Shown here: in pieces, positions 10,377 through 49,960 of the stretch
Position numbering within the stretch: position 1 is the stretch's first letter
How the letters are laid out: every line of letters starts with the position of its first letter
Source: Gammaproteobacteria bacterium
GTDB lineage: Bacteria > Pseudomonadota > Gammaproteobacteria > CBDBNL01 > JAAOII01
DNA: 64,000 bases
Assembly (NCBI GenBank): GCA_965209035.1
Contig: OZ242372.1
Coordinates: 384,001-448,000 of the forward strand
Direction of reading: 5' to 3'
Notes under the pieces: model-generated
Database searches by the model: none
Seen by the model: the letters and a program-made list of their open reading frames with translations, nothing else
Told to the model about the DNA's origin: nothing
Made by a program: the position numbers and the translations under genes

Positions 10377-12305
10377 TTATTGTTTGTCTCGGCCTTGTGC
10401 CGCCAGACCGCCGGGCATGCAGTTCAGAGCCGGATATTGTGTGCTGTTACCGAGATCCCAAACACGGATGAAACGATCATCCTCCGGCTTGGTCTCACTT
10501 TCCCTCTCATCGCCCGTATTCGGATCGCACCAGAAGTTGCCCCAGGCGGCATAGATCCCCGTGAAGTCGGGGTCTTCGGGGGTTTGCAAGTCAGTGGGGA
10601 GCAGCCCCATACCGAGAACATCACCGGTACTGTTGGTTGCACTGGTTGGTCGCATGGTGGTCTCATTATTCCAATAGGAATCTTCAACGATTGTGAAATC
10701 ATTAGCAGAGCCTAACAGACCGCCAACATCACTATTCCCGGAAACTCTTCCGCCGGACGCATAAGCAAAGCCAATATTAGTAGGTGACCCATTCCCGACC
10801 AGTCCGCCAACTTGCAAATTCCCGGAAACTCTTCCGCCGGACACATAAGCATGGCGAATATTGGCAGACTGCCCATGCCCGACCAGTCCGCCAACAGGTT
10901 CATTCCCGGAAATATCTACGCCGGACATATAAGCATAGCGAATATCCGCTCGCTCCCCATACCCAACCAGTCCGCCAACACTAAGTTCCCCGGAAATACT
11001 GACACCGGACACATGAACATAGCGAATATTAGCATTCAGACCTTCCCCAACCAGTGCGCCCACTCTGTTGCCGGGCGGACTCATCACACTACCGCCCGTA
11101 ATCGATACATTCCGAATGCGGTTATTCCCGTTAAAACCCACAGAGCCCACTAATATACCGATATAATGCGAGCCGCCACCGACGCGTGCATCCGAAAGAT
11201 GTAAGTTTTGGATACGGCCATTCAACGCAGCAAATAACCCCACACCAACCGAACCACCAGGCGCACTGATAAACAGATTGGCAATACTCCAACCTTGACC
11301 GTCAAGAATCGCCGCATAAGCATCTGCTGAGCAAAGAGCACTAAAAAAGTCACAGGAGCCGATCGGCTGCCAGCCGTGGCCGCTGCGATTTGTCCAGGCA
11401 GCCATCTTATCGCTGCCCTTGGCATAGGAATCCGGATCGCTGAAATTCAACGAGCGAGTCAATTCATAGCCATTACAGCCGGAACCCGGGCAACCCACAG
11501 CACCCACAGCGTCAATCGCATCAATATTGCCATCATCCGTCCCATTGCCATTTAGATCATCGCGCAGCCGCGCCAAGTCATCCAAAGTGTGGATTTCTAT
11601 GAGACCGTTATTATTGTCGTCCACATCTACCGTATTCAGGTGTGTGTCATCGTCTACATCCGGATCACAGGCATCGCCTAGTGCATCGCCGCCACCCGGC
11701 AGCATCTTGTCCGTATTGGTTTGGTCCGCATTCTTTATCAGTTGGCAGTTGTCGACATCGTCATTCACACCGTCATTGTCATCGTCCGGATCCAGACTAT
11801 CCGGCAGAGTGTCACCGTCTGTGTTGTTCCCGGTTCGGCGCAGCGGGCCCGAGACCACCTTGGATACACCGCCGTCTTCATACAGGATGGACAAACTGAC
11901 TGTGTAATTGCTCTCATCTGTCAGGTCATCAAGTACATAGTCCACCATTGCCAGGGCGGCCTTATCCGCATCATCCCCGGTAAGTTCCGAGTCTAATGCG
12001 GGCGGAGTCGTACTCACCCAACTGATCCTGAAGTCGCTGATATCGGTGCGATTCGGGTTGGTCCAACTGAGTTGCAAACTGCTTTCAGCCGGAATAATTT
12101 TTAGGTCGGAAACACCGGGAGGAGGAGTGCCACCGCCACCGGAACCACCACCACCTCCTCCACCACAGGCAGCGAGTAGGGCAATGCAGACAACCGACAG
12201 GGCGATTGTCAATAATAGATTGATACCATTGCGTGCCGTTTGCCCGGTCGCGACGATGCATGCAATGCAGTTGCTACTGAGAGTTTTTATTGCAAATATT
12301 TTCAT
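10377..12305 (-). CDS. Surface lipoprotein paralog 1 (FN3-like + thrombospondin type-3 Ca-binding repeats + GLUG-type beta-helix)
   Basis: LLAAC lipobox then poly-Gly; LSW...Y.VS FN3 pattern; DxDxD..D..DNC repeats; 28-aa GGLVG repeats. Confidence 0.85.
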   Translation of the reverse strand: MKIFAIKTLSSNCIACIVATGQTARNGINLLLTIALSVVCIALLAACGGGGGGGSGGGGTPPPGVSDLKIIPAESSLQLSWTNPNRTDISDFRISWVSTTPPALDSELTGDDADKAALAMVDYVLDDLTDESNYTVSLSILYEDGGVSKVVSGPLRRTGNNTDGDTLPDSLDPDDDNDGVNDDVDNCQLIKNADQTNTDKMLPGGGDALGDACDPDVDDDTHLNTVDVDDNNNGLIEIHTLDDLARLRDDLNGNGTDDGNIDAIDAVGAVGCPGSGCNGYELTRSLNFSDPDSYAKGSDKMAAWTNRSGHGWQPIGSCDFFSALCSADAYAAILDGQGWSIANLFISAPGGSVGVGLFAALNGRIQNLHLSDARVGGGSHYIGILVGSVGFNGNNRIRNVSITGGSVMSPPGNRVGALVGEGLNANIRYVHVSGVSISGELSVGGLVGYGERADIRYAYMSGVDISGNEPVGGLVGHGQSANIRHAYVSGGRVSGNLQVGGLVGNGSPTNIGFAYASGGRVSGNSDVGGLLGSANDFTIVEDSYWNNETTMRPTSATNSTGDVLGMGLLPTDLQTPEDPDFTGIYAAWGNFWCDPNTGDERESETKPEDDRFIRVWDLGNSTQYPALNCMPGGLAAQGRDKQ

Positions 12306-12373
12306 AATTTCTTTTTGTAATAGGTTTGTAATATAGTTCTAAAATAATGAAGGGTAATCCTCGCGTTATTGTG

Positions 12374-14302
12374 TTATTGTCTCTGCCTTGCCAGGCCACC
12401 GGGAACGCATCTAAGTGCGGGGTATTGTGTGCTGTTACCGAGATCCCAAACACGGATGAAACGATCATCCTCCGGCTCGGTCTTACTTTCCAACTCATCG
12501 CCCGTATTCGGATCACACCAGAAGTTGCCCCAGAATTGATAGATCCCCGTGAAGTCGAGATCTTCAGGGTTTTGCAGTTCGGCGGTGATCTTGCCCATGC
12601 CAAGATCAGTGCCGGCACTGGTTGACTGCATGGTGGTCTCCGTATCCCAATAAGAGGCATTAACGATTGATTGACCTTCAGCTCTGCCAATCAAACCGCC
12701 AACCTCACCGGAGCCTGAAATAGGCCCACCGGCGGCATAGGAAAAATGAATTTGCGTATTCGCATTCGTCGTCGCAACCAGTCCACCAACCTGCCCATCC
12801 TCGGAGGAAACGTTTCCGCCGGACACATAAACATGACGAATATCGGCAGACTGCCCCCCCCCAAACAGTCCGCCAATACTAGCACGATTCCCGACAACAT
12901 CTACGTCGGACACATAAGCATAGCGAATAACCGCTTGCTCCCCATACCCTACCAGTCCGCCAGTTTCAATTCCTCCGGAAACACTGACACCGGATACATG
13001 AACATATCTAATGTCAGTAAAAAGTCCATCCCCAATCAGTCCGCCCATTCTGTTGCTACCCGGTCTCATCACACTACCGCCCGTAACCGATACATTCCGT
13101 ATGCGGGCATCCCTACCGTTACCCGAAGTACCCACTAGCGTACCCACATTATGTAAGCCGCCACGGATGTGCACATTCCGGAGATGCAGGTTTTGAATAC
13201 GGCCATTGAACACAGCAAACAACCCGACACCGACCTTTTTCTGACTCGCATTGATAAACAGATCGGCAATGCTGTAACCTTGACCGTCAAGCATCGCCGT
13301 ATAAAAGGAGTTACAAAAATTATTATTATTCTGAGCACAGGAACCAATCGGCTGCCAGCCGCTGCCGCTTGTCCAGGCAGCCATATTCTCGCTGTTACCG
13401 CTCTTATCGTCATAGGAATTCGGATCGCTGAAATTCAACGAGCGAGTCAATTCATAGCCATTACAGCCGGAACCCGGGCAACCCACAGCACCCACGGCAA
13501 TAATCGCGTCAATATTGTCATCATCCGTTCCATTGCCATTTAGATCATCGCGCAGCCGCGCCAAGTCATCCAAAGTGTGAATTTCTATGAGACCGTTATT
13601 ATTGTCGTCCACATCCGCCTGCATCGTCTCGTTTGCTTCGTCCGGAAAACCGTCATTGTCATCGTCCGGGTCACAGGCATCGCCTTTATCATCACCATCG
13701 CCATTCACATTGTCCGTGTTGGTTTGGTCCGCATTCTTTACCAGCCGGCAATTGTCGTCGCCATCATCCACACCGTCATTATCATCGTCCGGATCCAGGC
13801 TATCCGGCAGAGTGTCACCGTCTGTGTTGTCCCCGGTTCGGCGCAGCGGACCCGAGACCACCTTGGATACACCGCCGCCTTCATACAGGATGGACACACT
13901 GACCGTGTAATCGATGCCGTCTGCCAGACCATCAAGTACATAGCCCGTCATCGCCAGGGCGGATTGATCCGCCTCATCCCCGGTAAGTTCCGAGTCTGAT
14001 GCGGGCGGAGTCGTACTCACCCAACTGATCCTGAAATCGCTGATATCGGTGCGATTCGGGTTGGTCCAACTGAGCCGCAAACTGCTTTCGGCCGGAATAA
14101 TTTTCAGGTCGGAAATGCCGGGAAGTGGGTTACCACCGCCGCCACCGGAACCACCGCCGCCACAGGCGGCGAGTAGGGCAATGCAGACAGCCGACAGGGC
14201 GATTGTCAATAATAGATTGATACCGTTGCGTGCCCTTTGGCCGGCCGCAGCAATGCATGCAATGCAGTTGCTACTGATAGTTTTTATTGCAAATATTTTC
14301 AT
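12374..14302 (-). CDS. Surface lipoprotein paralog 2 (FN3/TSP3/GLUG)
   Basis: Same architecture as paralog 1, with long near-identical blocks. Confidence 0.85.
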   Translation of the reverse strand: MKIFAIKTISSNCIACIAAAGQRARNGINLLLTIALSAVCIALLAACGGGGSGGGGGNPLPGISDLKIIPAESSLRLSWTNPNRTDISDFRISWVSTTPPASDSELTGDEADQSALAMTGYVLDGLADGIDYTVSVSILYEGGGVSKVVSGPLRRTGDNTDGDTLPDSLDPDDDNDGVDDGDDNCRLVKNADQTNTDNVNGDGDDKGDACDPDDDNDGFPDEANETMQADVDDNNNGLIEIHTLDDLARLRDDLNGNGTDDDNIDAIIAVGAVGCPGSGCNGYELTRSLNFSDPNSYDDKSGNSENMAAWTSGSGWQPIGSCAQNNNNFCNSFYTAMLDGQGYSIADLFINASQKKVGVGLFAVFNGRIQNLHLRNVHIRGGLHNVGTLVGTSGNGRDARIRNVSVTGGSVMRPGSNRMGGLIGDGLFTDIRYVHVSGVSVSGGIETGGLVGYGEQAVIRYAYVSDVDVVGNRASIGGLFGGGQSADIRHVYVSGGNVSSEDGQVGGLVATTNANTQIHFSYAAGGPISGSGEVGGLIGRAEGQSIVNASYWDTETTMQSTSAGTDLGMGKITAELQNPEDLDFTGIYQFWGNFWCDPNTGDELESKTEPEDDRFIRVWDLGNSTQYPALRCVPGGLARQRQ

Positions 14303-14370
14303 AATTTCTTTTTGTAATAGGTTTGTAATATAGTTCCAAAGTAATGAATGGTAATCCTTGCGTTATTGCG

Positions 14371-16281
14371 TTATTGTCTCTGTCTTGCCAGGCCACCGGG
14401 CATGCAGTTCAGAGCCGGATATTGTGTGCTGTTACCGAGATCCCAGACACGAACAAAAGGAGCATCCAACGCGGCGGCACTTTCCATCTCATCGCCCGTA
14501 TTCGGATCGCACCAGAAGTTGCCCCAGAATTCATAGTCCCCCGTGAAGTCGGTTGGGCCTTGCAGTTCGGCGGTGGTCAGGCCCATACCGAAAACATCAC
14601 CGGTACTGTTGGTTGCACTGGTTGACCGCATGGTGGTCTCCGTATTCCAATAGGAATCTTCAACGATTGTGGAATCACTAGCAGAGCCCAACAGACCACC
14701 GCCACTCCCGGAAACTATTCCGCCGGACGCATAAGCAAAGCCAATATTAGCACGCGTCCCAACCCCGACTAGTCCGCCAACATTACCATTCCCGGAAACA
14801 CTTCCGCCGGACACATAAGCATGGCGAATATTAGCAGACTCTCCATACCCAACCAGCCCGCCAACAGCATCATTCCCGGAAACATCTACGCCGGACGCAT
14901 ACGCATAGCGAATATTGGCAGACTGCCCATACCCAACCAGTCCGCCAGCCTGAATTAGCCCGGAAACACTGACACCGGATATATGAGCATAGCGAATATT
15001 AGCCCTAATACCATACCCAACCAGCCCGCCCACTCCGGCGGCTCCCGGGCTCATCACACTGCCTCCCATAACCGATACATTCCGAATGCGGTTATTCCCA
15101 TTAAAACCCACAGTACCCACTAGCAGACCTACATTACTTTTGGCGCCACCGACGTGTGCATTCCGGAGATGTAAGTTTTGGATACGGCCGCCATACAACG
15201 CCGCAAATAACCCCACACCTTGCACACCACCGAGTGCACTGATAAACAGATCGGCAATGCTGTAACCTTGACCGTCAAGCATCGCCGTATAAGGGAATGA
15301 GCAAACAGTAGCACTCAAACAAGAACCGATCGGATCCCAGCCGCGGCCGCTCGTCCAGGCAGCCATATTCTTGCTGTTACCGCTGTTATCGTCATAGGAA
15401 TCCGCATCGCTAAAATTCAGCGAACGGGTCAACTCGTAGCCATTGCAGCCGGAACTCGGGCAACCCACAGCACCCACGGCGGTAACCGCGTCAATATTGC
15501 CATCATCCGTCCCATTGCCATTCAGATCATCGCGCAGCCGCGCCAAGTCATCCAAAGTGTGGATTTCTATGAGACCGTTATTATTGTCGTCCACATCCGC
15601 CGGCATCGTCTCGTTTGCTTCGTCCGGAAAACCGTCATTGTCATCGTCCGGGTCACAGGCATCGCCTTGATCATCGCCCTCGCCATTCACATTGTCCGTA
15701 TTGGTTTGGCCCGCATTCTTTACCAGTTGGCAGTTGTCGACATCGTCATTCACACCGTCATTGTCATCGTCCGGATCCAGACTATCCGGCAGAGTGTCAC
15801 CGTCCGTGTTTTTCCCGGGCCGACGCATCGGACCCGAGACCACCTTGGATACACCGCCGCCTTCATACAGGATGGACACACTGACTGTGTAATCGGTGCG
15901 GTCTGTCAGGCCATCAAGCACATAGCCCGTCATCGCCAGGGCGGCCTGATCCGCCTCATCCCCGGTAAATTCCGAGTCTGATGCGGGCGGAGTCGTACTC
16001 ACCCAACTGATCCTGAAGTCGCTGATATCGGTGCGATTCGGATTGGTCCAACTGAGCCGCAAACTGCTTTCAGCCGGAATAATTTTTAGATCGGAAACAC
16101 CGGGAAGTGAGTTACCACCGACGCCGGAACCACCTCCGCCGCCACCGCCACAGGCGGCGAGTAGGGCAATGCAGACAGCCGACAGGGTGATTGTCAATAA
16201 TAGATTGATAGCGTTGCGTGCCGGTTGTCCGTCCGCAAGGATGCAGTTGCTACTGATAGTTTGTGTTTGAAATGTACTCAT
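14371..16281 (-). CDS. Surface lipoprotein paralog 3 (FN3/TSP3/GLUG)
   Basis: Same architecture; first gene of the array, with a different extreme N-terminus. Confidence 0.85.
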   Translation of the reverse strand: MSTFQTQTISSNCILADGQPARNAINLLLTITLSAVCIALLAACGGGGGGGSGVGGNSLPGVSDLKIIPAESSLRLSWTNPNRTDISDFRISWVSTTPPASDSEFTGDEADQAALAMTGYVLDGLTDRTDYTVSVSILYEGGGVSKVVSGPMRRPGKNTDGDTLPDSLDPDDDNDGVNDDVDNCQLVKNAGQTNTDNVNGEGDDQGDACDPDDDNDGFPDEANETMPADVDDNNNGLIEIHTLDDLARLRDDLNGNGTDDGNIDAVTAVGAVGCPSSGCNGYELTRSLNFSDADSYDDNSGNSKNMAAWTSGRGWDPIGSCLSATVCSFPYTAMLDGQGYSIADLFISALGGVQGVGLFAALYGGRIQNLHLRNAHVGGAKSNVGLLVGTVGFNGNNRIRNVSVMGGSVMSPGAAGVGGLVGYGIRANIRYAHISGVSVSGLIQAGGLVGYGQSANIRYAYASGVDVSGNDAVGGLVGYGESANIRHAYVSGGSVSGNGNVGGLVGVGTRANIGFAYASGGIVSGSGGGLLGSASDSTIVEDSYWNTETTMRSTSATNSTGDVFGMGLTTAELQGPTDFTGDYEFWGNFWCDPNTGDEMESAAALDAPFVRVWDLGNSTQYPALNCMPGGLARQRQ

Positions 16282-22775: not shown

Positions 22776-24047
22776 ATGCTTGATCCACAATTTTTGCGTC
22801 AGCATCCCGAACTCGTCGCCAATTCTTGTAAAAAACGCGGCCTGACATTTGATACAAAACACTATGCGCTGTTGGAGCAACGGCGGAAAAATGTTCAAAC
22901 GGAGGTGGAAGAACTAAGGCATCGGCGCACAGTCGGCGCCAAAGAAATTGCCGTTCTGATCAAAAATAATCAAGATGCCGAGCATCTGAAAAAACAAATG
23001 CAGGAGGTGCAGCAACGGATTAAACGGGAAACGGAAAAACTAAACGAAGCTCTCGCCGCCCTGCTGGAATTGCAATTACAACTGCCCAATCTGACGGATG
23101 ATTCCGTCCCCGAAGGAAAAGACGCAACCTCTAACCGAACGGAATTGGTGCACGGCGACATACCGAAGTTTTTATTTAAGCCAAAACAACATTATGAGAT
23201 CTTGCCGAATTGGCAAGACATGGCCATGGCCAGCCGCATGGCCGGCAGCCGTTTTACACTTTTTTCAGGCGAACTGGCGCTGCTGCATCGGGCCCTCATC
23301 CAAATGATGTTGGATATACATATTCGCGAACACAACTACACGGAAGTTTATGTGCCGGTGATCGTCAACAAACAAGCACTGGTCAATAGCGGACAGCTAC
23401 CGAAGTTTGCCGCAGACCTGTTTCACCTGCAAGAAACCGACTATTGCCTGATCCCGACCGGCGAAGTGCCTTTGGTCAATGTCGCCGCCGGCCGTATCTT
23501 TCAACCCGAAGAACTGCCTTTGAAACTCACCGCACACTCCCCCTGCTTTCGCAGCGAAGCCGGCAGTTACGGCAAGGATGTCAAGGGGATGCTGCGCCTG
23601 CACCAGTTTGACAAGGTGGAGTTGGTGCAGATTACCCATCCGGAAAAATCCGAAGAGGCTCTGGAAGAGATGTGCGAACAGGCCCAAAATATCTTGCAAA
23701 GACTGGAACTGCCTTATCGGGTGGTTACTCTGTGCGGCGGCGATATCGGGCATGCGGCCGCAAAAACCTATGATCTGGAAGTTTGGTTGCCCGGACAAAA
23801 CAACTATCGGGAGATTTCTTCTTGCAGCAACTGCCGCGAATATCAGGCAAGGCGGATGCTGGCAAGAGTGAATATCCGGGGCAACAATGTCCCGGTGCAC
23901 ACTTTGAATGCTTCCGGCTTGGCGGTTGGTCGCACACTCATTGCCGTCATGGAAAACTATCAAACTGCGGACGGTTCGGTCAGAATTCCGGACGCGTTGC
24001 GTCCTTACACGGGTAATCTCACCGAAATTCGGTCGGCTCCCGCATAG
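22776..24047 (+). CDS. serS: Seryl-tRNA synthetase
   Basis: MLD start, LIPTGEVP, CFRSEAG, RLHQFDKVE, YREISSCSN and HTLNASGLAVGR motifs. Confidence 0.98.
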   Translation: MLDPQFLRQHPELVANSCKKRGLTFDTKHYALLEQRRKNVQTEVEELRHRRTVGAKEIAVLIKNNQDAEHLKKQMQEVQQRIKRETEKLNEALAALLELQLQLPNLTDDSVPEGKDATSNRTELVHGDIPKFLFKPKQHYEILPNWQDMAMASRMAGSRFTLFSGELALLHRALIQMMLDIHIREHNYTEVYVPVIVNKQALVNSGQLPKFAADLFHLQETDYCLIPTGEVPLVNVAAGRIFQPEELPLKLTAHSPCFRSEAGSYGKDVKGMLRLHQFDKVELVQITHPEKSEEALEEMCEQAQNILQRLELPYRVVTLCGGDIGHAAAKTYDLEVWLPGQNNYREISSCSNCREYQARRMLARVNIRGNNVPVHTLNASGLAVGRTLIAVMENYQTADGSVRIPDALRPYTGNLTEIRSAPA

Positions 24048-24171
24048 AGCTTATATAAAAGAACTTATATAAGTTTTCTTATATAAGAAGCGATAAGAAG
24101 TATTGTGAATTCAAGTAGATAGCTTGACTTCGAAAAAATTTTTAGATTTTTCAAAATCATTGTACTGACAG

Positions 24172-24415
24172 TGCATAATCTCAAAAAGGCTTTGAACTCT
24201 GAGTTGGGCATTGTGCGTCCTCAGATCAAAGACCAAGTACCGGAGGTTCTGTCGGGCAGGACGAAGAGAGATCCGGCAAGCGGCTCAAGGTATGTGAAGA
24301 TAGATTAATGAAGCGGGCAAAATGGAATGTGAACTGCTCCAATCTTTACGGTGCGAGCTACGGAGGCATGTTGTTGAAAAACTGTCGCGGTGCTTCCGCT
24401 GGCGAGACAGTGTGG
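24172..24415 (+). mobile_element. Diverged copy of the IS481 left end plus leader (no transposase)
   Basis: Colinear with 25890-26130 (CTGAG...GTGCGTCCTCAGATC, CCGGAGGTTCTGTCGG, TCCGCTGGCGAGAC). Confidence 0.85.
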
Positions 24416-24545
24416 GGGGAATTGTATATCATTCCCTAAAATCATTAAGTTGAAGATCCGATTTTTTGAACGAGTACCTAAAAAATCCGAGGCATCGCCC
24501 GCCCCGTTGACTGTTTGGATATAGGCAGTCTTTTATAAGGTGTGA

Positions 24546-24571
24546 ATTCAAGTAACTAGTGCAACACCTTG
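24546..24571 (+). repeat. 26-bp inverted repeat, left copy, flanking the R-M cassette
   Basis: ATTCAAGTAACTAGTGCAACACCTTG; one mismatch to the reverse complement of 27470-27495. Confidence 0.85.
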
Positions 24572-24679
24572 AAAGGTTTCCTTGAATTTTGTAGAATTCA
24601 AGGGAATGCACTAATCACTTAAATCTTGGGTGCGTTTAAGAAAGTAGCAGTTAGAGATCCCCGCGGAAGCCGAGATCAT

Positions 24680-25126
24680 TCATAAGATTCTTTTAAGCCA
24701 TTTTATTGCGCGTTTAAGAATGGTAATGTCGTCATCCATCATCCCCATGCTTGAATTACATTGCCGGCAGACCCATCCTCTTATCTCACCGGTCTTATGG
24801 TCGTGATCTATCACGACATCATTTGTATATTGACGAGTGATCGTTTTCCGGCACACCGGACAATAAAATTTTTCGCCAATTGCCGGGCGAGGATGCTGCT
24901 GTTCGTATTCTGTCTTTCTCTTTCTTGATATCGGTTTTTTTATTTTTCGACATTCTATACAATCACCTCGGCGAGATATTCTGCCACTGACAGTTCTTTA
25001 ATTTTTTTGAAATGCAAAAAGAGATTTCCTTTTTTGACAAAGTCGACAGATTTTTGTTTTTCCCAAACAGTCCGCACAGTATTTTTCTGCCGCCTTGTTC
25101 GTTCCGCATTCTATGCATTTGTTCAT
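24680..25126 (-). pseudogene. Hpy99I-like His-Me (EndoVII-type) restriction endonuclease with an internal TAA
   Basis: Manual translation: MNKCIECG...KICRLCQKRKSLFAFQKN*RTVSGRISRRGDCIECRK...FYCPVCRK...VVIDHDHKTGEIRGWVCRQCNSSMG...IKWLKRIL. The stop is at 24998-25000 (codon 43). Confidence 0.8.
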
Positions 25127-25889
25127 TTGTTCTCGCGAGTTCCGGTTTTACAATACTTCGCAATGTTTTAAAGTGTTTCAAAATGTTTCACAATACGGCG
25201 GAAATCGGGATGGGTATTCTTTTTTGTTCTTCTTTAAATATTTCTCGTAATCGTTTATTGGCAATTGCAGCATACGGTTCATATATTTCACTTCCGACAA
25301 AATTGCGGCCGGTTAACATTGCCATCTTGGCGGTGGTTCCGCTTCCCATAAAGGGGTCGTACACAATCTCACCCGCATTGCTCCAAGACAAGATATGATC
25401 TTTTGCCAACTCTTCCGGAAATATTGCGGGATGACCGTATGCAATAGAATCACTGGCAGAATGACCCTTACCGATGTTATATTGCCACACATTGGTGCGC
25501 CTCCCTGTCTTGTCATATCCCTTTCTAATCACCTGTTTCAATTCCCCGCCAAATAATCTTTTATTACTAACATCGCCATCTCGGCTGTCTTTATTTTCTC
25601 GGTCTCTTATAAGATTAATTGTTTTGGGTTTCCCTTTAGAAAGGACGAACATATACTCAAAACTTTGCCAGTATGTCCGATTGTCCCCGCAAGCACCGCG
25701 CGGCGGCTTAAGGTAAATCATCGTATCAAAGAGATTAAATCCTACCCGCTTAAAATACAAAGCCTGGCGAAAAGAAGTTCCGCTTTCATCCCCCTCTTTT
25801 GTTTGATCATTGACTATCCAAACCAGGACACCGCCCAATTTCAAGACGCGATGCAATTCCTTTGCAATTGATGTGAATTGTGAAAAAGT

Positions 25890-27188
25890 TGCATGATCTC
25901 ATAAAGGTTCTGGACTCTGAGTTTGGTATTGTGCGTCCTCAGATCAAGCGTCCGGAGGTTCTGTCGGACGGGTCGAAAATAGATCCGGCAACGGGTCTTC
26001 GGTATGTGGAGCTAGATGAATGAAACGGGCAAGAAGGACGGATAGCTGTTTTGCTCTCACCGCCGCAGACAGCGGAGGCTTGTTGTTGATAAAACTGTCT
26101 AGGTGTATCCGCTGGCGAGACGGTATGGTTTGTGAGGGCAGCCGGACTGCACATTGGAAATGAGAGGAACACGTTTACGCTACATTGGTTATCGCGTGCG
26201 CGGTTTCAATAAAATGGTGGTTTTAGCAAATCAATATTTAAACATGTCTAAAACCACCAAAATAAAACTGGACACCTTGGCGTTCGCGCGCAAACATGGT
26301 GTCGCGGCCGCGTTGGATCATACCAGGATCAGTCGTGCTACATTCTACGAGTGGCAGCGGCGTTTCCGTGAAGGCGGGGTCGATGAACTGGCGAACAACT
26401 ATGGGTATCAGCCCAAGCGGTCCAACACCTGGCCACCGGCACTGATTACCAAGATCCGGTCTTGGCGACAACAGCGTCCGAACATCGGTGCCGGTAAACT
26501 GGTCTGCTTGTTACCCGAATGGTGTCAGCAGCGCGGGCTGCCGCTGCCCAGCCAATCAACGCTCTCTCGCATCATTGCCGATGACCCGGATAAGATGCGG
26601 TGCAAACCATCGCGGTCCGTGCCGAAACGCCCGCGGCATGGTGCTCCGCGCGAGCGCAAGGACACCCGCTTTGTTGCGGGCCGGAGAGGTGAATGTGTTG
26701 CCTTTGATACGCTCGTCCGCATCGTCGATGGCCGGCGCTTTTATTGGCATGTCGGCATTGACCTATTTTCCCGCTTCTCACTGGTCAGTGTCGACACCTC
26801 CGCTGCTTCGGCCAGTTCCGCCCGGCTCTTTACCGCCATGCAAAACATACTCGGCACTCGGATCGAAAAAGTCCTCACCGATAATGGCAGTGAGTTCGCC
26901 AAAGACTTTCACCGGGTCGTGACCGCAAACGGCAGCACCCACTGGTATACCTATCCAAGGAAACCGCAAATGAATGCACACTGCGAACGGTTTAATCGCA
27001 CTCTCTGGGAAGAGTTCGGTTGTCATATGCGGCATCTCTTGGTTAAGGATATGCCGGCATTCAACGCCAAACTCATCGAGTGGTTGGCTTGGTATAATCT
27101 GGAACGTCCCCATTATGCTCTCAAACAACTCTCGCCAATCCAGTTTTTGCAAAAACAACAAAAGTCCAGAAATGGGTGGGATCATACA
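25890..27188 (+). mobile_element. Complete IS481-family insertion sequence, 1299 bp, 5-bp TSD AAAGT
   Basis: Ends TGCATGATCTCATAAAGGTTCTGGACT and AGTCCAGAAATGGGTGGGATCATACA form an imperfect IR; AAAGT at 25885-25889 and 27189-27193. Confidence 0.92.
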
Positions 27189-27224
27189 AAAGTGTTCCCA
27201 GAATACTTCCTTATGTTATCATAG
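26160..27224 (+). CDS. IS481-family DDE transposase
   Basis: HTH (ISRATFYEWQRRF), AFDT, TDNGSEF, PQMNAHCERFNRT and YNLERPH motifs; the ORF runs through the right IR. Confidence 0.93.
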   Translation: MRGTRLRYIGYRVRGFNKMVVLANQYLNMSKTTKIKLDTLAFARKHGVAAALDHTRISRATFYEWQRRFREGGVDELANNYGYQPKRSNTWPPALITKIRSWRQQRPNIGAGKLVCLLPEWCQQRGLPLPSQSTLSRIIADDPDKMRCKPSRSVPKRPRHGAPRERKDTRFVAGRRGECVAFDTLVRIVDGRRFYWHVGIDLFSRFSLVSVDTSAASASSARLFTAMQNILGTRIEKVLTDNGSEFAKDFHRVVTANGSTHWYTYPRKPQMNAHCERFNRTLWEEFGCHMRHLLVKDMPAFNAKLIEWLAWYNLERPHYALKQLSPIQFLQKQQKSRNGWDHTKVFPEYFLMLS

Positions 27225-27469
27225 GGCGGTGAGGTGATCATCATATCAATGGAACTTGTTTCAAACCGTTGCATTGTCTTAAGGCAATCTTCGTTATAAA
27301 TGTGATTAATTTTCATTGTTTGATCTTCCAATACTTCTACCATACAAACATATTACCTTAATTTTGTAGTTCTAAAATTTTAACGCCAAACGCATTAATA
27401 GGCAGGGAATTATAATCCGCTGAATTGGACAAAATTCAATGGGGCTATTTATAAGGTTTATAAGGCTTA

Positions 27470-27495
27470 CAAGGCGTTGCACTAGTTACTTGAAT
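27470..27495 (-). repeat. 26-bp inverted repeat, right copy
   Basis: CAAGGCGTTGCACTAGTTACTTGAAT. Confidence 0.85.
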
Positions 27496-27546
27496 CCATA
27501 TATCTAATCAATATATCAATATTTAAATACTGTTAGAATCTAAAAA

Positions 27547-27619
27547 CGTCCCCTAGGGGATTCGAACCCCTGTTGCCGCCGTGAAAGGGCGAAGTCCTGG
27601 GCCTCTAGACGAAGGGGAC
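27547..27619 (-). tRNA. tRNA-Glu(TTC), no encoded CCA
   Basis: GTCCCCTTCGTCTAGAGGCCCAGGAC...CT-TTC-AC...GGTTCGAATCCCCTAGGGGACG. Confidence 0.96.
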
Positions 27620-27723
27620 AACATTTATTATTATAGAAAGTCGGCACAGGCATTTGGAGTAAAAAAGCGAATTTAATCGGCAAGAGAATTATTTATCTCG
27701 CCGGGCGGTCATCTTGCCGCAGG

Positions 27724-33938: not shown

Positions 33939-33973
33939 TATTATAAGTCACGAATTGTATAGCCACGCCCATT

Positions 33974-34010
33974 TGCATGATCCCACCCAGTTCCGGACTC
34001 TTGTTGTTTT
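33974..34010 (-). mobile_element. Isolated IS481 right-end remnant
   Basis: TGCATGATCCCACCCAGTTCCGGACTCTTGTTGTTTT closely matches the reverse complement of the IS right end. Confidence 0.8.
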
Positions 34011-34099
34011 AATACAACGGGCCTGTCGCAAGGTTTTTTACAGAATGGTCGTATAATAAAACACAGTATCTGTTCTTTTGAATGAAGGTACTTTATTTA
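34004..34099 (+). promoter_or_regulatory. 96-bp direct repeat copy 1, containing a putative sigma70 -10 box (TATAAT)
   Basis: Identical to 36001-36096. Confidence 0.85.
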
Positions 34100-35782: not shown

Positions 35783-36000
35783 GAAAGAGTTCATAAGTCT
35801 GTATCATCACTGCTCGCTCATATACACGACCAGTTCCCAAGAAACGTACTTTGTAAAAAGTATCTCGTAGCGATACCTTAAAGGTAGTGCTTTGTAAAAC
35901 AGCAATTCTCAATGAATCGCATCATGCGACCAAAACACTCACTCCAACAACACTCGTCCTTTAATAGGAACTAATAGGAACACAAATACACACTTATTTC

Positions 36001-36096
36001 TTGTTTTAATACAACGGGCCTGTCGCAAGGTTTTTTACAGAATGGTCGTATAATAAAACACAGTATCTGTTCTTTTGAATGAAGGTACTTTATTTA
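36001..36096 (+). promoter_or_regulatory. 96-bp direct repeat copy 2; promoter of the ABC substrate-binding gene
   Basis: Identical to 34004-34099. Confidence 0.85.
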
Positions 36097-41554: not shown

Positions 41555-41908
41555 TGCATAGTCTCATAAAGGTTCCGGACTCTGAGTTTGGTATCGTGCG
41601 TCCTCAGATCCAGAAGCCGGAGGTTCTGTCGGACGGGTCGCAAATAGATCCGGCAACGGATCTCCGGTATGTGGAGCCGGATGAATGAAACGGGCAAAAA
41701 AGACGGATAGATGTTTTGCTCTTGCCGACGCAGACAGCGGAGGCTTATTGTTGATAAAACTGTCCGGGTGTATCCGCTGGCGAGACGGTGTGGTTTGTGA
41801 TGGCTGGCTTGGTATCATCTCGCGCGCCCCCATTATGTTCTCAAACAACTCTCGCCGATCCGGTTTTTGCAAAAACAACAAAAGTCCGGAAATGGGTGGG
41901 ATTATACA
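41555..41908 (+). mobile_element. Internally deleted non-autonomous IS481 derivative (full leader plus last ~100 bp)
   Basis: Colinear with 25890-26140, then jumps to 27080-27188 and ends in GGGATTATACA. Confidence 0.9.
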
Positions 41909-42071
41909 AATTACGCTTATTTATTTGTATAAAATTATGATTATTATCAATAATTTGATACATTTCGCTTATAATTGGAAGCAAATTAATTATTATGATG
42001 AAACTTTATAAGCAGGGATCACATGTTTTTTGTGTGCGCCTCATTTTTCTTTTTCAAAACAACAACTCATT

Positions 42072-43820: not shown

Positions 43821-43992
43821 TGCATAACATCAGCAAGGTTTTGAACCGGGAGTTTGATGGCATGCGTCCCAAATCCCGGAAAATTAAAGTTCTGCCGGCA
43901 GGCATTCAAAAGTCCCCATTACGCCTTTCAACAACTCTCTATATTGGTTTGGATAAAAATACAAAGAGTTAAAAAGTGAGCGGAACTATACA
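43821..43992 (+). mobile_element. Old degenerate MITE-like IS481 derivative (~170 bp)
   Basis: TGCATAACATCAGCAAGGTTTTGAACCGGGAGTTTG resembles the left end; GTCCCCATTACGCCTTTCAACAACTCTC...GGAACTATACA resembles the right end. Confidence 0.7.
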
Positions 43993-44063: not shown

Positions 44064-44157
44064 TGTATCATCGCGTCCGATTTTGGACTCTTTTCGCGAA
44101 CGCGCAATGAACACACAATGCCAAACTCAGAGTCCGGAACCTTTATGAGATCATGCA
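44064..44157 (-). mobile_element. 94-bp MITE-like IS481 derivative
   Basis: Minus strand reads TGCATGATCTCATAAAGGTTCCGGACTCTGAGTTTGG...GAGTCCAAAATCGGACGCGATGATACA. Confidence 0.8.
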
Positions 44158-44299
44158 TCCGATGCTATCGTGCATTTTGTCTTACCGGCTTCGGCATAAA
44201 ATAGGATTAAGATGATAAACAAGCCGAAACAAAGACTGTTCATATTCAACTATTCAACCGGGATCTTGCCGAAAATAGCGCGTTCTTTTACCGAATCCA

Positions 44300-48844: not shown

Positions 48845-49080
48845 CCGCCAAACCAACGCACAGAGTACAATTATCATAAACTGAATTAAGATTAATATGT
48901 CCGAATTAAACACTGTCCTGCCGGGGGATACAATGCGATTGATACACACCATAAAAGATGATTCCGTCGATCTGATCGTTTGTGACGGTCCCTATGGCGT
49001 CACCGACAATGCATGGGATAACACAAAAGAGAGTATCCAATCCTATAACTTGAAGTTAATTAAATTATTTGCCGCCAAAC
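48845..49080 (+). pseudogene. 227-bp tandem duplication of the MTase promoter and 5' end (truncated 66-aa copy at 48897-49097)
   Basis: CCGCCAAAC at 48845, 49072 and 49299; the copies differ by several SNPs. Confidence 0.9.
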
Positions 49081-49123
49081 CAACGCATAGAGTATAATTA
49101 TCATAAACTGAATTAAGATTGAT

Positions 49124-49960
49124 ATGTCCGAATTAAACACTGTCCTGCCGGGGGATGCAATGCGGTTGATACACACCATAAAAGATGATTCCGTCGATCT
49201 GATTGTTTGTGACGGCCCCTATGGCGTCACCGACAATGCATGGGATAACCTCCAAGAGAGCATCCAATCCTATAACCTGAAGTTAATTAAATTATTTGCC
49301 GCCAAACTCAAAAGCGGTGGCTCCTTATATCTTTTTGGCAAAAGCGATTGCATTGATTTCATAGACTATCGTCCGTTTCTTTTTTTAAAAAGAAAAATAG
49401 TATGGTTTCAGCCAAGCAGATTGGCACAAGGAAGGATTAATTACACCAACAACTATGATTTAATCTGCTTTTTTGTTAAAGGCACAAAACCCAAAACCTT
49501 TAACCTGGATGCCATAAGAATTCCGCAAATAACGGAGCTGACGCATCGCAAAAGATGTGAAAATGTGCCATCCGTAACCAACGGGAAATGGGGTAAAACG
49601 AAGTTTAATGACAAGGGAAAGAACCCGGGCGATGTGTGGGGAGATATCAAGCAACTCACTTATAAATCCAAGGAACTTGTAAGCAGACACGCGTTGAATA
49701 CCATTCAAAAACCGGAAGAGTTAATAAAACGATTAATCTTGGCAAGCAGTAACGAGGGGGATCTGGTGCTGGACCCTTTTGCGGGAACCGGCACATGCCC
49801 GGCGATCTGTGTCAGGCACAATCGGAATTTCATTGCTTTTGAATGCGAACCCACTTACTTGGAAGAATGCCATAAACGGATTAAAAAAGAATTTATGATA
49901 AAGCAAAGGAACAAACTAAAAAAAGAAGAAAACTTATTTGATGAAGCATATCTACAATAA
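49124..49960 (+). CDS. Beta-class amino-DNA methyltransferase (N6A/N4C) with a DGPY motif IV
   Basis: VDLIVCDGPY, GKNPGDVW, QKPEEL and DPFAGTGT motifs. Confidence 0.92.
   Translation: MSELNTVLPGDAMRLIHTIKDDSVDLIVCDGPYGVTDNAWDNLQESIQSYNLKLIKLFAAKLKSGGSLYLFGKSDCIDFIDYRPFLFLKRKIVWFQPSRLAQGRINYTNNYDLICFFVKGTKPKTFNLDAIRIPQITELTHRKRCENVPSVTNGKWGKTKFNDKGKNPGDVWGDIKQLTYKSKELVSRHALNTIQKPEELIKRLILASSNEGDLVLDPFAGTGTCPAICVRHNRNFIAFECEPTYLEECHKRIKKEFMIKQRNKLKKEENLFDEAYLQ

Follow-up and report, generated by a model that had tools for sequence, protein, structure and literature searches.

Within a stretch of 64,000 nucleotides from a gammaproteobacterial genome (contig OZ242372.1, positions 384,001 to 448,000; below, the window), a segment of 270 nt upstream of a transposase gene recurs at three places. 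An earlier note on this DNA, made from the sequence alone, took the segment for a conserved structured leader of an IS481 element, and proposed that it encodes a regulatory or guide-like RNA or else acts in a cascade of translational coupling. We conclude that the 270 nt are probably the left end of an active IS481-type insertion sequence (IS), made up of an inverted repeat of ~32 nt and an unusually long 5′ leader of ~235 nt, and that the copies lacking a transposase are products of its decay. A repeated, hairpin-rich stretch that is dense in open reading frames (ORFs) and close to a transposase gene mimics a regulatory or guide RNA; here it would be the end of an amplified insertion sequence.

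The insertion sequence and its copies in the genome

The full-length element in the window is 1299 bp long (25890-27188, forward strand), with ends TGCATGATC...GATCATACA that are defined by comparing the flanks of 20 full-length copies. It splits the gene for an N6/N4 DNA methyltransferase, the C-terminal part of which lies at 25188-25856 (PF01555, E = 2.4e-33) and the N-terminal part at 27182-27343, both on the reverse strand. A BLAST search of the host genome (2.24 Mb) with 25870-27210 gave 133 high-scoring segment pairs, comprising the 20 full-length copies and 113 fragments. Twenty intact copies in a genome of this size mark a massive recent expansion of the insertion sequence.

Members of the IS481 family are expected to have terminal inverted repeats and short target-site duplications, and the window element has inverted repeats of ~32 nt and duplications of 5 bp. 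The left inverted repeat (IRL; 25890-25921, forward strand), delineated by eye against the reverse complement of the right end, contains the core TTCTGGACTC that is shared with relatives such as L110. The right inverted repeat (27157-27188, forward strand) encodes the conserved C-terminal W..T of the transposase, as seen from the sequence, the alignment of homologues and the family of right-end repeats. Sequence reading and flank comparison show that the window copy is bounded by AAAGT on the left (25885-25889) and on the right (27189-27193). Of the 20 full copies, 12 show a clear duplication of this kind; the sites are ATGAT (twice), AAATC, AAAGT, AATTA, ATTTG, AATAG, TATGC, CCGCA, CCCTT, AACGC and CTACA, which are 11 different sequences. 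The remaining eight copies are tandem or nested, or have unmatched flanks.

The transposase ORF (26160-27224, forward strand) encodes 354 amino acids with a helix-turn-helix (HTH) and an rve-type DDE core, identified by Pfam, NCBIfam and alignment with homologues, and its stop codon lies beyond the element in the flank. In all 20 full copies it is intact, as a single ORF without frameshift, and its length varies from 344 to 410 amino acids because the stop codon falls in flanking DNA. The IS481-type assignment made previously is borne out by the Pfam matches (PF13683, E = 9.5e-14; PF00665, E = 4.5e-08; in all rve, rve_3 and HTH_32, HTH_28, HTH_29 and HTH_23) and by the best NCBIfam model, NF033577 (transpos_IS481; E = 1.6e-50), with IS3 second at 99.8 bits. 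Since the NF033577 score of 172.2 bits falls under the curated cut-off of 224, we file the element as IS481-type and ISKpn28-like and do not class it with the core IS481 equivalogs. Among named relatives the IS481-like ISKpn28 comes closest, sharing 34% identity across residues 6-354, and the nearest annotated relatives carry the name 'IS481-like element ISKpn28 family'. The closest proteins from elsewhere are P0005 (79%), P0002 (71%) and P0003, P0004 and P0006 (44-45%). The contig that encodes P0004 measures 1324 nt for a protein of 347 residues, and so could accommodate a long leader. A scan of genome contigs for closer transposases gave five loci only, with at most 50% identity over short pieces, and with a class-wide protein search 6 of 399 other genomes had matches, none above 41%.

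The position of the start codon determines what is to be called the leader. The N-terminal sequence MRGTRLRYIGYRVRGF is kept across the clade, with G17, F18 and M31 invariant in an alignment with 16 homologues, and this conservation places the transposase start at ATG 26160. The leader is therefore 25890-26159 (270 nt, forward strand), consisting of the IRL and a 5′ untranslated region of ~235 nt that is specific to this lineage.

At three places in the host genome (G000:C1:1176729-1179332, 679332-681935 and 886084-886128) right and left ends are joined head to tail with 0-5 nt between them, the partners being either two copies or a copy together with a fragment of the right end. Such junctions would be expected of an element that passes through tandem or circular junction forms, or that prefers to insert beside its own ends.

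Copies lacking the transposase

The three copies of the leader reported for the window, at 24172, 25890 and 41555, are all recovered by a repeat search, which also groups them as a 58-nt left-terminal family. The segments 25890-26139 and 41555-41804 are 90% identical, and 24240-24381 matches the other two copies at 72% and 68%. In a search of the whole genome these copies match at E-values of 1e-41 to 1e-95, and therefore share descent and do not arise by chance.

The copy at 41555 is not a bare leader, because both termini are retained and the interior is deleted: it also holds 110 nt of the right end (27081-27190 aligned with 41801-41910). By repeat search and BLAST it is an internal-deletion derivative (41555-41908, forward strand), in which the left 250 nt are joined to the right ~108 nt without a transposase. 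It thus resembles miniature inverted-repeat transposable elements (MITEs) and other internal-deletion derivatives in having both termini and no transposase; its flanks, ATGCA and AATTA, provide no matching 5 bp, and so no sign of recent mobilization. The copy at 24172-24415 (forward strand), examined by BLAST and alignment, is an old left-end fragment that matches leader positions 1-239 at 76% identity, and no right end lies close to it. The repeat search further gave a solo left-terminus fragment of 47-48 nt (44111-44158, reverse strand), a solo right-terminus fragment of 39 nt (33972-34010, reverse strand) and a weak match of 62% at 43821-43878.

The fragments in the host genome as a whole follow the same pattern. 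The right terminus is kept by 67 of the 113 and the left by 32; 19 of these 32 stop before position 90, and only seven exceed position 200. Coverage by fragments is U-shaped, with a mean of 31.9 over the first 50 nt, 7.9 at 201-250, 2-3 in the middle of the element and 67.5 over the last 50 nt. Derivatives with both ends retain 107-327 nt of the left end. The suggestion that the leader is kept under selection after the transposase is lost thus finds no support in these counts. The earlier note had named decay of the leader at the same rate as other dead IS DNA as the outcome that would speak against it, and this is what is found in one decayed copy, C1, in which the ratio of nonsynonymous to synonymous substitution rates (dN/dS) of the transposase is 0.88 and the leader has diverged by 0.145, compared with 0.144 at synonymous sites. 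Retention of the leader without the transposase is ordinary decay, in which the middles of elements are lost first, and is the usual pattern of terminal fragments and deletion derivatives.

Two further features of leader DNA were noticed in the host genome. Older copies gain tandem 10-nt repeats, as GGCGGTTCGC-like units near position 65 and as CATTACTGCA units directly before the ATG; these spots are columns 72-98 and 309-348 of leader alignment A3. Separately, leader positions 1-132 (78% identity) lie directly upstream of three paralogous genes, two of them in tandem (G000:C1:260200-261200, and on the reverse strand 2067362-2066230 and 2068495-2067363). These encode proteins of ~290 amino acids with predicted membrane segments and 'GVRTELKGDIA' repeats, and their frame opens at the first ATG of the leader's ATGAAT block, after which come AAGGAGG and another ATG. 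The three paralogs may have recruited the leader fragment as their promoter or 5′ untranslated region.

Folding and covariation of the leader

The hairpin arms that had drawn attention to the leader are real as sequences. Alignment confirms CTGAG/CTCAG, CCGGA/TCCGG and CGGA/TCCG in all three window copies, and the 9-bp stem CGGAGGCAT/GTGCTTCCG with its G-U pairs can be read at 24362-24398. The arms persist because the whole sequence persists, and no compensatory change backs them. The stability of the fold is not above that of shuffled sequences (z = -0.64 for the sense and +0.17 for the antisense strand). When 24000-27700 was searched against Rfam 15 only a tRNA passed, and three other matches fell far below their gathering scores.

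Comparison of copies gave a similar result. RNAalifold applied to an alignment of 20 copies, which represent five or more lineages, returned a consensus of -3.53 kcal/mol with a covariation term of -0.07. Within the three named hairpins there was one double change in 220 cells, the covariation was equalled by 33 of 500 shuffles, and the pair C28-G53 was broken in 6 of 18 copies. For the minimum free energy structure of the reference copy the score was equalled by 347 of 500 shuffles. With a z of -0.64, no Rfam match, a covariation term of -0.07 and no excess over shuffles, the leader as a conserved structured RNA is not supported.

The upstream open reading frames

The chain of reading frames is present as had been described, with ATGA overlaps between successive members. 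The first upstream ORF (uORF1; 25889-26023, forward strand) has 44 codons and the second (uORF2; 26020-26163, forward strand) has 47 and overlaps the transposase start; both are taken from the ORF list and were compared between copies. Where they meet lies the GATGAATGAA block (26015-26024, forward strand), in which TGA stops in two frames stand beside two ATGs; its columns are nearly invariant in alignment A3, and apart from the IRL no other part of the leader is so well conserved. uORF1 is open in the three window copies, that at 24172 having an in-frame insertion of 6 nt.

Neither frame behaves as a gene for a functional small protein, which would have a start of its own, a kept frame and purifying selection. 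Base 25889, the T of the uORF1 TTG start, is flanking DNA, since the element starts at 25890. Over the 20 copies the start codon is ATG in seven, GTG in three, TTG in five and CTG in five, equal to the chance expectation of 75%. The ratio of nonsynonymous to synonymous differences (pN/pS) is 0.59 for uORF1 and 0.75 for uORF2, with other frames of the same DNA giving 0.61-1.59; by this measure the peptides are not conserved. The uORF1 frame is broken in four of six copies of the C group. A +17 insertion is common to three loci and therefore predates their spread, so that elements with a broken uORF1 have still spread. A whole sub-lineage lacks 'DPATGLR' through a deletion of 21 nt, which is also found in P0122, a 37-residue homologue of uORF1 on a contig of another assembly. 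The two peptides have no match in Pfam or NCBIfam.

An antisense ORF of 78 amino acids was also considered and set aside. Subfamilies A, B and C2 have it open, but in the copies at 41555 and 24172 it is in another frame or broken.

The leaders of related elements

We compared the element with 80 metagenomic relatives (loci L048-L127) of 29-43% identity. In 37 loci the start was found by the N-terminus pattern with at least 60 nt available upstream, and 37 further loci were judged by eye. In 35 of the 37 pattern-found loci the element terminus, resembling TGCATAAGG, stands 44-48 nt away from the ATG; in 36 of the 37 further loci, including ISKpn28, it is within ~65 nt. Overall, in ~71 of 74 relatives the element ends 44-65 nt upstream of the start codon. 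Individually folded, these short leaders form a stable hairpin that covers the start (mean z = -3.56; z is under -2 in 32 of 39), in which the inner arm of the inverted repeat is paired with the start region. The arms vary in sequence by subgroup yet still pair, which looks like real covariation. The ISKpn28-like clade of IS481-type elements is characterized by a very uniform leader of 44-65 nt whose inner repeat arm pairs with the start codon. Examples of the hairpin can be seen at L102:230-290 and L057:852-912. RNAalifold found no consensus for the 60-nt leaders, as their variable arms are misaligned by MAFFT.

ISKpn28 and its uncultured relatives have the same single-ORF transposase as the window element, with the N-terminal extension M-R/Q-I-x-x-I-G-Y-x-V-x-G-F, the HTH and the rve core; their ORF likewise reaches the very end of the element, and their inverted repeats share the core (T/A)TTG(C/G)ACTC. 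They differ in the leader, for in place of an end 44-65 nt from the ATG and a stable start hairpin the window element has 270 nt and no start hairpin (z = +0.09 at the true ATG). In IS10 and IS50 a fold-back layout hides the transposase start in read-through transcripts. The pairing of the IRL inner arm with the start region gives the relatives a layout that would be expected to silence read-through transcripts in the same manner. The window element has lost this hairpin, and its long leader with stops and uORFs may do the same job.

The extra ~235 nt were absent from the genomes of 60 other relatives and from plasmids searched with blastn. An origin by duplication, whether from the element itself or from the N-terminus of the transposase, was rejected, as the scores were equalled by 37-168 of 200 nucleotide shuffles and by 128-185 of 300 protein shuffles. 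A profile made for nhmmer from the leaders of 35 relatives matched nothing in the element and missed even the true IRL, and so is uninformative about a relic inner repeat directly upstream of the ATG. The sole other relative with a long leader is L106, whose 184 nt are unrelated in sequence to the window leader. That leader (L106:391-578) includes a perfect TATAAT. A resemblance of its upstream peptide to that of uORF1 is unconvincing, being equalled by 44 of 5000 shuffles when the part encoded by the IRL is included and by 266 of 5000 beyond it.

A possible role for the leader in transposase synthesis

On the basis of its sequence, the most likely role of the leader would be to act in cis as the leader of the transposase mRNA, with the ~32-nt IRL serving as the inverted repeat to which the transposase binds. 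Stops in all frames would block read-in from host genes. A conserved Shine-Dalgarno-like GGAG together with the ATGAATGA block would start translation of the 47 codons of uORF2, and this translation would end on the weakly signaled ATG of the transposase. The result would be a low, and possibly coupled, synthesis of transposase, so that in the window lineage the long leader would stand in for the start-codon hairpin of the relatives.

Several observations weigh against taking the 270 nt simply as a left end with decaying copies. The covariation tests are underpowered, most copies being more than 75% identical, and a scan of the leader for a consensus promoter was empty. Divergence of the leader relative to synonymous divergence of the transposase is a mosaic (0.081 and 0.035 between subfamilies A and B, 0.045 and 0.158 for H), and between A and A2 the leader differs by 0.013 but synonymous sites by 0.11-0.13. 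Some constraint, or gene conversion, may thus be acting on the leader. The differing divergences point to recombination or gene conversion between copies; leader and transposase histories are seen to differ in the G000 copies at C1:679332, 886084, 936404 and 141644. The uORF1 peptide matches the repeat motif SDPNEIDPTTGISYVE in two secreted-looking proteins, P0124 and P0125, with phmmer (E ~2e-5). Finally, L106 has one ORF of 61 codons that runs from the element terminus to an ATGA at the transposase start and is equalled by 133-151 of 20000 shuffles, and this layout seems to fit a designed relay better than junk.

The similarity of uORF1 to the 'IDPxTGxSYVE' repeat proteins P0124 and P0125 and to the 2809-residue repeat protein P0121 was examined further, and is probably due to chance. 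The scores for these three proteins are summed over internal repeats, uORF1 matching P0124 and P0125 over four stretches each, and for P0121 a single repeat gives E = 2e-4 or weaker. In the element's own genome the motif is confined to copies of the element (23 of 23).

A possible translational relay

A relay of the kind suggested by L106 is an explanation that we consider unlikely for the window element, although a good deal of the sequence can be accommodated by it. In such a relay uORF1 would be translated either from the boundary start codon, composed of a flanking base and TG, or by ribosomes arriving from a host gene; on reaching the ATGAATGA block the ribosomes would terminate, begin again on uORF2 and terminate a second time on the transposase ATG. 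Most of the transposase would then arise by termination and reinitiation, and its output would report the context of each insertion.

The chain is intact in all 20 full copies, with the uORF2 stop overlapping the transposase ATG in 13 and lying 1 nt upstream of it in seven, despite a 5-nt insertion or deletion between subfamilies. That ATG is preceded by a weak GGA only. The GATGAATGAA block is nearly invariant even where copies are 76-78% identical, and a +7 frameshift in copy C2 leaves the chain in place, since two frames are stopped by the block. Against this, the 47 open codons of the window element are equalled by 1618-1970 of 20000 shuffles and so are not significant, and uORF2 has a pN/pS of 0.75. 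The chain is broken in C1 and C4, which share a +1 insertion, in C3, and in H, where the ATG is lost. A hot spot of insertions and deletions lies directly upstream of the ATG (+5 in subfamily B, +30 in C1), the boundary codon is CTG in 5 of the 20 copies, and there are only two long-leader elements, examined post hoc. The proposed coupling cascade therefore fares unevenly. The ending of uORF2 at or 1 nt before the ATG stands in all 20 copies and has a counterpart in L106; conservation of the peptides does not stand, and the chain is broken in the older lineages.

A wider form of the idea, that the long leader is a relay which has replaced the start-codon hairpin of the family and makes transposase synthesis depend on the translational context of each insertion, is a little more doubtful again. 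The unrelated leader of L106 appears to have evolved the same upstream-ORF layout independently. Two lineages would then have exchanged a short leader for a long one with an upstream ORF ending on the transposase ATG, which is a possible alternative throttle on the transposase.

The possibility of a regulatory RNA

Much less probable is a regulatory RNA within the leader, cis-acting or antisense and of the type of IS10 RNA-OUT or IS481 Pout, that limits translation of the transposase, with a fold too weak, or copies too alike, for covariation to be revealed. There is precedent in the family. For IS481 of Bordetella pertussis, PMC6161684 describes a promoter Pin and an opposing Pout whose small transcript stops translation of the transposase, so that the remark in the earlier note that no RNA control at the 5′ end is known for IS481 is dated. 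That element belongs to the same family by name and its control sits at the 5′ end of the transposase mRNA; the window element differs in showing neither a promoter-like site nor a stable antisense fold in our scans.

The oldest copies do conserve two blocks of the leader, GGTATGTGGAGC..GATGAATGAA and CTTGTTGTTGATAAAACTGT, and in some pairs of copies the leader diverges less than synonymous sites. On the other side, a consensus scan of 25800-26400 gave no promoter-like site on either strand, the antisense fold has the positive z given above, the leader has no Rfam family and no covariation, and between the two active subfamilies it is less conserved than the coding DNA.

The idea of a guide RNA

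A guide-like RNA that pairs with target or donor DNA, analogous to the bridge RNA of IS110, can in practice be dismissed, as far as sequence allows, because the enzyme is of the DDE class and near-identical leaders stand beside 11 different target sequences at 12 sites. Elements of the IS110 type have an IS110-type recombinase, no inverted repeats, and a noncoding RNA with loops complementary to target and donor; the window element has none of these characters. What is shared with IS110 and IS1111 is the layout, a long noncoding stretch between the element end and the recombinase gene, and the analogy is a loose one. The window element differs in its enzyme, an rve-type DDE transposase with an HTH, and in having inverted repeats and 5-bp duplications with no common target sequence; its leaders, 98-100% alike at those 12 sites, are unrelated to the targets. 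In ~71 of 74 relatives, moreover, an RNA of this kind would not fit. In the papers listed by a literature search, 'IS481 family' was not found together with 'bridge RNA'.

Other repeats and neighboring genes in the window

A 33-nt inverted pair (91% identity) at 24543-24575 and 27466-27498, with a further occurrence at 24105-24125, encloses the inserted element together with the genes for endonuclease VII and the methyltransferase, and adjoins a gene for tRNA-Glu (27546-27620, reverse strand). The genome holds 12 occurrences of its core GAATTCAAGTAACTAGTGCAA at three mismatches or fewer, and none of the reversed control. The pair may mark the ends of an island, or represent a small repeat family.

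Elsewhere in the window, 10400-16245 holds three tandem paralogous units of ~2 kb that are 76-91% identical, each with internal repeats of 84 nt; these are probably a family of large repeat proteins. A tandem duplication of 227 nt (94%) lies at 48845-49298, and a direct repeat of 99 nt (99%) is found at 34001-34099 and 35998-36096, with a spacing of 1997 nt.

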